Below, piece after piece: positions 2,948 to 58,875 of a DNA stretch of 64,000 nucleotides. Source of the stretch: Lama glama (Eukaryota). The notes below the pieces were generated by a model. It searched no databases. It saw only the letters and a program-made list of their open reading frames with translations, and was not told the DNA's origin. The translations under genes were made by a program, and so were the position numbers. The stretch covers positions 65,722,001-65,786,000 of the forward strand of contig CM052816.1 of assembly GCA_028534125.1 (NCBI GenBank). The letters are read 5' to 3'. Numbering within the stretch: position 1 is the first letter of the stretch; the number at the start of each line of letters is the position of its first letter.

Positions 2948-3925
2948 TCTTTTGGTGCCCCTGCCCTTGGCACGTCTGTCCTCGTTGTAAGTGGAGTTCT
3001 TCTACCTCTCTCTCCAAAGTCCCATTTGCTCTTGGGACTCTTTCTCTTGTTTGGCTCCTTTGGTTTTTGATAACTGAGGGAGGGAACCAATTACTTGTAT
3101 GTCCTGCACTTTCTACCACTTATTCCAGAACTGTTAGTCCCTAGAGCTATGCCAGGCACGTTTCCTGCCTTCCGCCTGTAGAGGCTTTCTGGGATCAGCA
3201 TACTGTCCAAGGCATCATATCTACATGCAGCCGACACATTGATGAATACTGCAGATATTTGGCACTTACGATTTAAATGTAACTTTCCCTGAGTGCATAT
3301 AAACACTCCTGTTCTCTGCTGTGCGCTACATCTGACTATGTGTGTCATCTCTGATGCCATCTCTGTTCATCATGCCCTGAATCACATAAAGTGGGCACTT
3401 CTGCCAACATTACAGTGGCTCCTATTAAAGGAGGCTCATGGCCTCATAGTCATGAAGATAACTGTTAGCAAAGCCTTTGTTCCTCTCATCACCTACCAGT
3501 GGCAGGCCTTTTCCTGTCCTCGCTTCCTGATACTGTTGGCAGACATGACATTGAAGCTCAGATTTAAAGGAGATGTAAGGTCTAGAATCAAAGTCTTCTG
3601 GTTTATAATGATGAAAGCATTAAATATAGGCTGTTAACAAAACCTGTTAAAGTACAGAGACAGATGATAAAATTAGTCTCCCTGGGGTGAAGTCTATGAT
3701 AATGTAAGCTGTTTAGAAAATTGAGAAAACAAAATTAAAACTTTGCTTCACCTATGCTTTAAAAAAAATAAGGAATATCCCTTTGCCCTTTTAATTTTCA
3801 GAAGAGTGTGCATCTTACATGTGCGTTTCTTGCTGCTTCATGTGCCTTATATGCTGGATGGTTCAGCACCATTAGATGCTTTAGTTGTTTTTATCCCCAC
3901 CTTATTGCTTTTGCCAAGCAATCAG

Positions 3926-4127
3926 GCCTGTCCACGACTTCATTTTAATCCTTTTCTTTTTGTGTTTTGTTTTCCAGGTAAGTACTTTTGGTTTTCCTCT
4001 TCCTTAATGCTGAAAGAAAATGCACCTGCCTGATGTAGAGCACATGGTTTATGAACAGAACAACCAAAAGATAAAAAATAACGTGAATAGTAAAGCAAGC
4101 TCTGCTACCTGATACCTACCGGTAAGA
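3926..4127 (+). other. Recursive splice site (AG|GT ratchet point at 3977/3978) with 144-nt RS-exon 3978-4121
   Basis: Branch-like TTAAT (A3948), 50-nt AG-free zone 3926-3975, pyrimidine tract, CAG immediately followed by consensus GTAAGT, and downstream donor CCG|GTAAGA at 4122. Confidence 0.7.
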
Positions 4128-6749: not shown

Positions 6750-7462
6750 GATTGATTTGATTGACTTACTCATTCTCTCAGCAATGTTTAGGTATTAGGA
6801 TCACTGTATCTTGGTTTCTTGCTAGATGCGGGGTGAATAATGATGAGAAAGAAACAGAGTCCCAACTTTTCATGGAGAGATGGGTGTTAACGAAAAGATC
6901 CAAAAGTACATGTAAAGCTAAAGTAATGGTAAAGGCTGTGCAGTGCTAGGAGATTTTGTAACAGGGAGAGCTGTCTTTTTTGAGGGCATGTGGAAGATGT
7001 CAGAAATATTTCTCTTTGAATATAAGTGAACTGAGTTTGAAAGTGGGTGTGTTTCTGTGTGTGTGTGCGCGTGTGCGCGTGTGTGTATTCCAGTAGGAAT
7101 AGTGGCTAGAGTGATGACAGTAGCAGTGGTGGTTGTGATGGTGGTGAAGGGAGGATGAAATAAACAAAAGATAAGTGTCCAGGGAACAACATGTGCACGG
7201 TCCAGACATGGGAAGCAGGGTGAAGAGTATAGTTTCCCAAAAGAAAGCCAGTGGGTCTGGGACGCAGAGAGCTATAAGGAAGATCATAGCTTGAGAGGAG
7301 GGTAGGGACCAACTGAGGCAGAGCCTTATAGATTAAATTAAGGAGTTTGTCTTCTATCCTAAGAATAATAGGAAGCCAATAAAAGGCATTAGTGGATGGG
7401 AAGGTGAGATTTATAACATATTCAGATTTGTATTTTGGAAAAATTCATTTTGTCCTCCAGTG
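6750..7462 (-). mobile_element. L2 LINE fragment with internal (TG)n
   Basis: Purine-rich L2 antisense hallmarks: agggaacaacatgtgca, taaggagtttgtcttctatcct, atttgtattttggaaa. Confidence 0.75.
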
Positions 7463-34082: not shown

Positions 34083-34210
34083 ATGAGTTTGCCAACCGGC
34101 TGTGAGTATCTGACCCCGGGGAAGGTGGCTAGGTTCCGAAGCGCTGTTTATGTTCATGGATCGCCTTATGCAATCAACAAGCCAATTGACATAAAGCCAC
34201 AGAGGAGACG
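34083..34210 (+). CDS. PDE4D: Alternative first coding exon (unique N-terminal region) of a long-form cAMP-specific phosphodiesterase 4, most likely PDE4D
   Basis: ATG at 34083 with A at -3, followed by 42 codons (MSLPTGCEYLTPGKVARFRSAVYVHGSPYAINKPIDIKPQRR) plus CG, then the donor ACG|GTAACT at 34211. Phase 2 matches the splice onto the common UCR1 exon (x-FDVDNG/FDVENG) used by PDE4 long isoforms. I recall the AVYVHGSPYAIN.PIDI...RRRF motif from vertebrate PDE4 N-termini. CpGs are locally retained. PDE4D versus PDE4B is recall only, and the UCR1 exon is not in the window. Confidence 0.75.
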
Positions 34211-38280: not shown

Positions 38281-38412
38281 CCTGTTTTCTCCATGGGGAA
38301 AAATGACAAAGTTGCACACTTAGATTTCTAACCAATCATCAAGCTTTCATTTACTCAAATTATTGCTTTTAGTTCATTAGTATTATTAGTAGCATTCTTG
38401 TAATTTTTTATG

Positions 38413-38794
38413 AGTATGAGTTTGCTAGGGCTGCTACAACAAAATACAACAGACTGAGTGGCTTAAACCACAGAGATTTGTTTTCTCGCCAGAAGCACAA
38501 GATCGAGGTGTAGGCAGGTTTGGTTTCTCCAGAGGCCTCTCTCCTTGGCCTGCAGATGGCCACCTTCTCACCATGTCCTCCCCTGCTCTGTCCTCCGAGC
38601 AAACATCCTTGGTGTCTCTGTGTGTCCAGATTTCCTCTACTGATGAGAACACCAGCCAGATTGGATAAGGGGCCCACTCTCCCAGCCTCGTTAATCACCT
38701 CTTTAAAGACTATCTCCAGACACAGTCACATTCTAAACTACTGGGGGTTAGGCATCAACACGAAGTTTGGGGTGACACAATTCAGTGCATAGCA
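38413..38794 (-). mobile_element. MLT1B-like solo LTR
   Basis: agggctgctacaacaaaatac...gaggcctctctccttggcctgcagatggc...gacacaattcag. Confidence 0.88.
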
Positions 38795-38965
38795 AACTGT
38801 GCCCATAGAAATGCTGTGCTAGGAATGACTGTGGAAGGAGATAGGAATTAGGCTGTGATTCTTTAATAATCGGTGATCTTTCCATTAAAATATATTCAAT
38901 CAGTCTGAACTTGCAGAAGTGTGGCATTGCGGAGTATAGAGAAGTACTTTCCACTTTCACAGTTG

Positions 38966-55007: not shown

Positions 55008-55436
55008 TGTGACAGACTGAATTTTGTCCCCCCAAAGTTCATACATTGAAGTCCTAGTCCTCAGTACTTCAAAAAGTAACTGTATTTGGGGGTATGATCT
55101 TTAAAGATGATTAAGTTAAACAATTAAGTTAAAGCCAATTAAGTTAAAAGTTTAGGGTGGGCCCTAATCCAATATGACTTGTGTTCTTATAAGAAGGGAA
55201 AATTTGGAAACACAAAGAGAGACACCATAGATGTACACATGCTGAGGAAAGACCATGGGAACACACAGCAAGAAGGCGGCCATCTGTAAGCCAAGGAGAG
55301 AGACCTCAGAAGAAACCCACCGCCTGACACTTTGATCTTGGACTTCCAGCTTCCAGAACTGTGAGGAAATAAATCTCTGTTGTTGAAACCACCCAGTCTG
55401 TAGTGGATGCAATGGCAGCAGGAGACAGCAAATACA
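55008..55436 (+). mobile_element. MLT1B-like solo LTR, full length
   Basis: TG..CA termini, gggccctaatccaatatgac, ttgatcttggacttccagcttccagaactgtgag, AATAAA, and 5-bp TSD ATCTT/ACCTT. Confidence 0.9.
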
Positions 55437-55829
55437 ACCTTTTTAAATTTCTACCTTTGAAAATCCTCTCTTAAAATGATGGTAGAGGAAAAGAAGTGTA
55501 TCAGTCCCCAAGAACAGAGGGATGAGAAAGGAGAAAACTGGAGATGAGCAAGGAGTATTTTAGAAATGGGTAATAGAGAACTGAGATTAGCAAGGTTGAG
55601 AATGCTAATTACACAGTGCCTGCAGAGGAGGGTATCAGGAGAAGCAAACAATTCCCTTTGTGGAAATCTGGAAAGACCTGGGAATTGAGGAACCAAATAT
55701 GCTTAAAAATAGGTGGAGATTGATGGAAAATTTGCATCTAAAGTGGGCTCTTTCACAGACCCTCCTCTCACCCTGCACAGCTAGGAGACCAATTCCACTC
55801 CAACCTCATCAGATCATTGGAAAGATCAA

Positions 55830-58244: not shown

Positions 58245-58875
58245 TGGTGAAGGGGCCAAGCTCTGAGCTCAGTATCTGAGTTAAAAATCCCAGCCCTCAC
58301 TTATTAGCTGTTTGTCCTTGGATTCTTAGCGTTTCATCATCTCTAAAACGAGGATGGCAATCTCAGCCTCTGTGAAGACTAAATGAGATGATAGCTGCAG
58401 GGTGGACATTAATGTGCTGGCACATGGTAAGGTCACAATGCTAGCTTTTATTACTATGATTGGTATTGTCCATTATTACTGTTAGTCTCTTCATTTCTAA
58501 ATGAAAATAATGAAAATGATAATGTCAAACTTACAGGGCTATTGTGAGAATTAAAATAGATTATATAAATGTATATATATGTGTATATATACACTATATG
58601 TGCATGTATATACATACACATGTATATGTATATACACATACATACACACATATGCACACATACACATATACATGTATAGTAGTAACTAACACACAATAAC
58701 CACTCATGTTAGCTTTTATTACTCTAAGTATAACTATGAGTAGTAACTATTATTATAGTTTTTTCTTATATCAAAAATGAGGTTGTTGAAAAGATTTTAA
58801 AGTTAATATATTTTAAGGCCTTGGAACTGTGCCTTGTTGATGGTGAGCCCTATACAAGTGTTTACTTTTATTATT
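58245..58875 (+). mobile_element. Head-to-tail cluster of MIR pieces with an internal (TA/CA)n tract
   Basis: At least three MIR 3' halves, ending in tagctttttattact, tagcttttattact and ttacttttattatt. Confidence 0.7.

Follow-up and report, generated by a model that had tools for sequence, protein, structure and literature searches.

Introduction

In recursive splicing, a long intron is removed stepwise through sites at which a splice acceptor is followed directly by a splice donor. In Drosophila such sites are reportedly known as intronic ratchet points from the work of Hatton 1998, Burnette 2005 and Duff 2015, and a vertebrate model, in which a recursive splice site (RS-site) is accompanied by an RS-exon, is said to have been put forward by Sibley et al. 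2015 (Nature). The Drosophila ratchet points likewise combine a zero-nucleotide juxtaposition of acceptor and donor with the stepwise removal of long introns, but they belong to a different lineage and have no orthology to the llama site described in this work. Closer to it is the vertebrate model. As in that model, a strong acceptor is joined directly to a consensus donor at the llama locus, within a very long intron of a long gene expressed in brain; a donor farther downstream could delimit a putative RS-exon, this exon would contain a premature stop, and the rebuilt donor is stronger than the donor of the RS-exon. The llama architecture, as read from its sequence, differs from that model in nothing.

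PDE4D is listed among the first human genes with recursive sites (PMC8758631). Three human PDE4D sites are reported, at hg19 chr5 58981769, 58764261 and 58678237 (Zhang et al. 2018, PLoS Genet, PMC6110456); the first and third are credited there to Sibley et al. and the middle one is new, and a saw-tooth pattern is reported at all three. The middle human site (RS2, chr5:58764261, minus strand) has a PhastCons value of 1 and junction reads from exons ending at 59064072 and 58882154, which are 299,811 nt and 117,893 nt away from it, while the next exon follows after 252,467 nt (PMC6110456). The lariat table of the same paper has no PDE4D entry. In mouse, Pde4d sites are described at mm10 chr13:109333510, 109550007 and 109614417 (PLoS One 2022, PMC8797253), with 128, 42 and 33 upstream-junction reads, respectively, and with 0 downstream-junction reads at all three in cortex nuclear RNA. 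The middle mouse site, chr13:109550007, is found 107,654 nt after its upstream exon (PMC8797253).

The DNA analysed in this work, referred to as the window, is a stretch of 64,000 nt from the llama (Lama glama) genome (C1:65722001-65786000, plus strand, where C1 is contig CM052816.1). A first-pass annotation of this stretch had proposed a complete recursive-splicing module close to its start. The site, the gene and the architecture are already in print for human and mouse, and the llama site appears to be a conserved copy. We report that the AG|GTAAGT at window positions 3976-3983 is very probably the llama orthologue of the known PDE4D RS2, the middle one of three recursive sites, by which the intron would be removed stepwise. 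The use of the site in llama is inferred from its orthology to the RNA-supported sites of human and mouse.

Materials and methods

For the exon map, PDE4D sequences, both full-length and N-terminal, were placed on the genome, and the ends of the exons were read there. The N-terminal first-exon types are called D3, D4, D5, D7 and D8 in this work, which we take to be their customary labels. Donor strength was scored as the count of matches to the 9-position consensus CAGGTAAGT, and candidate branch points were read against the branch-point consensus yUnAy. The expected numbers of short motifs were obtained from shuffles. The census of AGGTAAGT in the intron covers 316.3 kb of its 475.9 kb.

Results

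The llama genome contains four PDE4 loci, and the one on C1 is encoded on the plus strand, with its UCR and catalytic exons extending from 65928519 to 66125821. Among the 120 matches listed for the frame of its last exon, those named at the source are PDE4D, generic or clearly unrelated proteins; no name of another PDE4 paralogue occurs among these 120, and the best named match among them, from camel, is 99% identical. This exon map and the PDE4D-named matches bear out the first-pass annotation in its placing of the site in PDE4D: the window is located inside this gene, on the sense strand, in its giant first intron. From the D5-type exon to exon 2 the intron measures 475,864 nt. The recursive site, whose regenerated donor GTAAGT starts at window position 3978 (C1:65725978), is preceded by the D5-type exon at a distance of 273,322 nt and by the D3-type exon at 110,427 nt, and exon 2 follows it after 202,543 nt. 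The coordinates of the site and of the exons are collected in Table 1.

Table 1. Elements of the recursive site and exons of the llama PDE4D locus (window positions, or positions on C1 where so marked; all listed elements are read on the plus strand)
Feature	Position	Strand	Remarks
Acceptor region	3926..3975	+	50-nt AG-free zone, candidate branch points, pyrimidine tract 3950-3975
Recursive splice site core CAG|GTAAGT	3975..3983	+	AG 3976-3977; GTAAGT 3978-3983; zero spacing
Putative RS-exon, 144 nt	3978..4121	+	predicted; stops in 3/3 frames
Putative RS-exon donor CCG|GTAAGA	4119..4127	+	7/9 match to CAGGTAAGT
D7-type first exon	ends about C1:65248458	+	AGT AG|GTGAGT
D4-type first exon	from C1:65325065	+	3' end lost in run of N
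D5-type first exon	ends C1:65452656	+	ACA TG|GTAAGA
D3-type first exon	ends C1:65615551	+	ATA TG|GTGAGT
Alternative first exon ("MSLP")	34083-34210	+	ends CG|GTAACT, phase 2
D8-type first exon	C1:65811367-65811462	+	
Common exon 2	starts C1:65928521	+	TTTACAG|T TTT GAT

Two of the first exons require a comment. The 3' end of the D4-type exon runs from C1:65325152 into a block of N, which is an assembly gap or a withheld stretch, and several contigs of a few hundred bases hold copies of a piece of this exon. The "MSLP" exon, 30 kb downstream of the recursive site, has an ATG after an in-frame stop and encodes MSLPTGCEYLTPGKVARFRSAVYVHGSPYAINKPIDIKPQRR; PDE4D isoforms of birds and frogs match it at their N-termini with E values of 1e-14 to 5e-16, and it also matches six proteins that include rodent, turtle and frog PDE4D isoforms. 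Because this exon is downstream of the recursive site, its transcripts bypass the site. Elsewhere in the window, the translations of about 38400-38800 and 55160-55450 appear alike by eye in opposite orientation, which suggests two copies of an interspersed repeat, and inspection by eye also suggested simple repeats near 6900-7300 and 58450-58700.

The elements annotated in the first pass, namely a branch-like A3948, an AG-free zone, a U-rich tract, CAG joined directly to GTAAGT, a downstream CCG|GTAAGA and stops in all three frames, were each found where they had been placed. The nearest AG upstream of the AG-free zone ends at 3925, and pyrimidines account for 88% of the bases over 3950-3974. 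TTAAT at 3945-3949 provides a candidate branch point at A3948, 29 nt before the acceptor G, and TTCAT provides a second yUnAy-type candidate with its A at 3942. In the translations of 3978-4121 the first stops, one per frame, are TAA 3979, TAA 4005 and TGA 4031. A coding exon at the site was considered and rejected: there are stops in every frame, and no PDE4D N-terminus among 120 proteins matches there.

The bare motif is at chance frequency in the window, with no excess. YAGGTAAGT was observed once on the two strands, against 1.30 expected from shuffles, and AGGTAAG was observed 6 times, against 9.6 expected. The combination with an acceptor context is rarer. Of the 4446 sense-strand AGs, only 10 have a pyrimidine content of at least 80% over the preceding 20 nt as well as 50 nt or more without AG upstream, and GT comes next in exactly one of these 10, the CAG|GTAAGT at 3975-3983, which is also the sole position on the sense strand of the window to match at least 8/9 of CAGGTAAGT. 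No AGGT on the minus strand of the window has both a pyrimidine tract and an AG-free zone of this size. By our arithmetic, about 0.003 full composites are expected per strand per 64 kb, which amounts to a few hundred by chance in the 2.35-Gb genome, and it is therefore the genomic context that decides. When the 501 nt surrounding the site were searched against the genome, no locus other than their own was matched.

Parts of the same 501-nt stretch were found in 19 of 24 sequencing runs, measured as the share of sampled words present, which is no evidence of expression or splicing. The word shares were 0.20-0.31 in the four runs recorded as RNA, 0.24-0.37 in ten guessed to be RNA, and 0.96-1.00 in five runs of unknown kind that are apparently from the source species. 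The metagenome, bacterial-genome and viral-contig collections were searched for orthologous DNA with the pattern GTGTTTTGTTTTN{2,3}AGGTAAGT, and none was found in them. Eight metagenome matches to the pattern align to the window at 36-41% identity, which equals chance; the pattern also matched five loci in bacterial genome records and four viral-contig loci, none of which is a PDE4D orthologue.

The genomic context of the llama site agrees with that of the published middle sites. Like human RS2, it is found in the same gene and intron, after the D3-type exon and between the first and third recursive sites (PMC6110456). The distances in human and llama, respectively, are 117.9 and 110.4 kb from the D3-type exon, 299.8 and 273.3 kb from the D5-type exon, and 252.5 and 202.5 kb to exon 2. 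The comparison with human is one of position, and human RS2 has junction reads and a saw-tooth, whereas the llama site has been read from its DNA only. The middle mouse site is 107.7 kb from its upstream exon, compared to 110.4 kb in llama, and the next recursive site follows after 64.4 kb in mouse and 64.6 kb in llama (PMC8797253).

For mouse the bases can be compared as well, within the 28 nt of printed sequence (PMC8797253). The tract upstream of AGGTAAGT in the middle mouse site has the 12-mer GTGTTTTGTTTT, which is identical to window positions 3961-3972, and the two tracts match by eye at 16 of 19 positions when a shift of 1 nt is allowed. This mouse tract is of a T/G type; among the 20 mouse tracts, no other combines 20% G with a lack of C. 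Immediately upstream of the AG, the last 2-3 nt read TTT in mouse and CC in llama, a length difference of 1 nt. The rebuilt donor is printed as ACG|GTAAGT (ACGGTAAGT) in all three Pde4d rows of the mouse table, whereas the llama D3- and D5-type exons give ATG|GTAAGT; the mismatch could reflect a difference between the species, or an error in the mouse table or in its PDF extraction.

In the intron census, sister acceptor-type AGGTAAGT sites were detected at C1:65536046 and at C1:65790587, the second of which is 4.6 kb past the window end. The upstream sequence of both is at least 85% pyrimidine, and their AG-free zones measure 33 or 66 nt. When compared to the printed mouse tracts (PMC8797253), the tract at C1:65536046 matches that of the first mouse site at 14 of 20 positions without gaps, and the tract at C1:65790587 matches that of the third at 15 of 20. 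The spacing from the first to the middle site (RS1-RS2) is 189.9 kb in llama, 216.5 kb in mouse and 217.5 kb in human, and that from the middle to the third (RS2-RS3) is 64.6, 64.4 and 86.0 kb in the same order. The first sister site is located 83.4 kb after the D5-type exon, compared to 82.3 kb in human. The two candidate sister sites are at the places predicted for the first and third published PDE4D recursive sites, and the ratio of the llama distance to that in human or mouse ranges from 0.75 to 1.03, for exons and sister sites alike. This agreement upholds the comparison with published human recursive sites that the first pass had called for, with the llama site at the position of human RS2 and of mouse chr13:109550007; its statement that PDE4D is among the published recursive-splicing genes was likewise correct (PMC8758631, PMC6110456, PMC8797253).

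Within the 316.3 kb of the census, AGGTAAGT occurs four times on the sense strand, and in three of these cases the upstream sequence is at least 85% pyrimidine and lacks AG over 33 nt or more. Such acceptor features are absent from the three antisense occurrences, in all of which the pyrimidine content does not exceed 50% and the stretch without AG does not exceed 13 nt. In the background, a pyrimidine tract of this kind is found at a rate of 3.4%.

The D7-, D5- and D3-type exons upstream of the site end in phase 2, with AG, TG and TG as the bases of the split codon, and exon 2 supplies the third base. Since the phase-2 exon end would be joined to G|TAA at 3978, the reading frame would give xxG and then an immediate stop, TAA 3979. 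It had been stated in the first pass that the first complete codon after a phase-2 upstream exon would be TAA, and this holds for all three first exons that could be read. The stop follows from the motif together with the phase and does not set this module apart; the same argument applies to any AG|GTAAGT in this intron, including both sister sites. The exon ends give a rebuilt donor of ATG|GTAAGT for the D5- and D3-type exons and TAG|GTAAGT for the D7-type exon. A further suggestion, that inclusion of the RS-exon could send transcripts from some upstream promoters to nonsense-mediated decay, is not indicated by these ends, as all readable upstream exons rebuild a perfect GTAAGT. The perfect rebuilt GTAAGT should favour skipping of the RS-exon by outcompeting CCG|GTAAGA.

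Discussion

The preferred reading of the site as the llama RS2 may be put as a sequence of steps. Transcription would begin at the alternative first exons located upstream of the site (D7-, D4-, D5- and D3-type), and in the first step the donor of the upstream exon would be spliced to the AG at 3977, with the removal of 110-480 kb. This joining would rebuild the donor as ATG|GTAAGT (D5- or D3-type) or TAG|GTAAGT (D7-type), and in the second step the rebuilt donor would be spliced onward, either over 64.6 kb to the recursive site that follows or over 202.5 kb to exon 2, so that no nucleotide of the recursive site would be left in the mRNA. The chances are about equal for and against recognition of the site by exon definition with the help of GTAAGA at 4122. 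In that case, the rare transcript that includes 3978-4121 would gain the stop at 3979 and be prone to nonsense-mediated decay.

Could 3978-4121 instead be an ordinary alternative (cassette or "poison") exon that is spliced as a unit, with an incidental GTAAGT at its 5' end? An acceptor of fair quality and a donor 144 nt apart do resemble any small exon, 46 of 84 mouse AGGT junction candidates were unannotated exons (PMC8797253), and some cassette exons are reported to carry AGGT (Zhang 2018, PMC6110456). We nevertheless consider a cassette exon very unlikely, because the orthologous mouse site with its 42 upstream and 0 downstream junction reads and its saw-tooth bears the signature of recursive splicing (PMC8797253), a saw-tooth is also reported at the human site (PMC6110456), the rebuilt perfect GTAAGT is stronger than a GTAAGA preceded by CCG, and all frames of the interval carry stops. 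It is extremely unlikely that the module is a chance or decayed look-alike, not used in llama, with the intron removed in one step or elsewhere. The site shares its strand with the gene, in an intron already known for recursive splicing, and its distances to three exon landmarks are those expected from the human and mouse sites; it has a 12-nt core in common with the mouse tract and is flanked by the counterparts of both sister sites, and the acceptor features accompany AGGTAAGT in 3/4 sense against 0/3 antisense cases over 316.3 kb of intron. These points outweigh the chance frequency of the 9-mer in the window and the few hundred composites expected genome-wide (about 0.003 per strand per 64 kb), and they stand beside the fact that use of the site in llama is read from orthology and not from RNA.

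A different alternative concerns how the site is recognized. The chances are about even that 4122 is a functional RS-exon donor, and a putative poison RS-exon is plausible. Definition of the RS-exon by a downstream donor is the published vertebrate model and the norm for vertebrate recursive sites (PMC8758631, PMC6110456), and premature stops are reported in most RS-exons (68%; Zhang 2018, PMC6110456). This exon-definition model is in keeping with a strong donor at a distance typical of exons, and the 4122 donor is the only one of at least 7/9 within 20-500 nt downstream of 3978. It is somewhat short of an even chance, but a serious possibility, that the site is used and yet defined without the 4122 donor, the RS-exon ending elsewhere or none being needed, in which case the "144-nt poison exon" would be an over-reading. 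A donor of at least 7/9 is found 50-300 nt downstream of 17.7% of all window positions, and the 4122 donor alone is therefore not significant; 144 nt of AT-rich intron would by default be expected to carry stops in three frames. An RS-exon was found for only 50% of the saw-tooth sites by Zhang 2018 (PMC6110456). The downstream donors listed for the mouse Pde4d sites are weak, with scores of -1.09, -1.65 and -3.21, and go together with 0 downstream-junction reads at all three sites; the middle mouse site is listed with a 230-nt RS-exon and a weak donor, not with a 144-nt exon and GTAAGA as in llama (PMC8797253). Passages of that study do not state how the interval was chosen at sites lacking downstream reads. 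The llama sister sites have their best donors at +38 (7/9) in one case and at +35 and +155 (6/9) in the other, with no common RS-exon length. A search of the literature on PDE4D for "poison exon" found none.

The elements of the locus follow one another along the intron in the order D5-type exon, RS1, D3-type exon, RS2, "MSLP" exon, RS3, D8-type exon and exon 2. By our arithmetic, points placed at random would occupy the three intervals that hold the recursive sites, one in each, with a probability of about 0.07, and the alternation of first exons and recursive sites is only suggestive. One might speculate that the sites are placed to clear the upstream intron before the polymerase passes the next internal promoter. 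With all first exons in phase 2 and all sites reading G|TAA, the RS-exons would serve as a decay trap, dependent on the promoter or exon upstream, for mis-initiated or mis-joined transcripts; we regard this as unlikely.

Conclusions

The value of the llama site is that of a positive control: a reading of raw sequence picked out a rare, high-confidence vertebrate recursive site and named the right gene. In mouse, no downstream intermediate is listed at any of the three Pde4d sites (PMC8797253), and the question of the RS-exon in llama bears on whether exon definition by a downstream donor is needed at all recursive sites.
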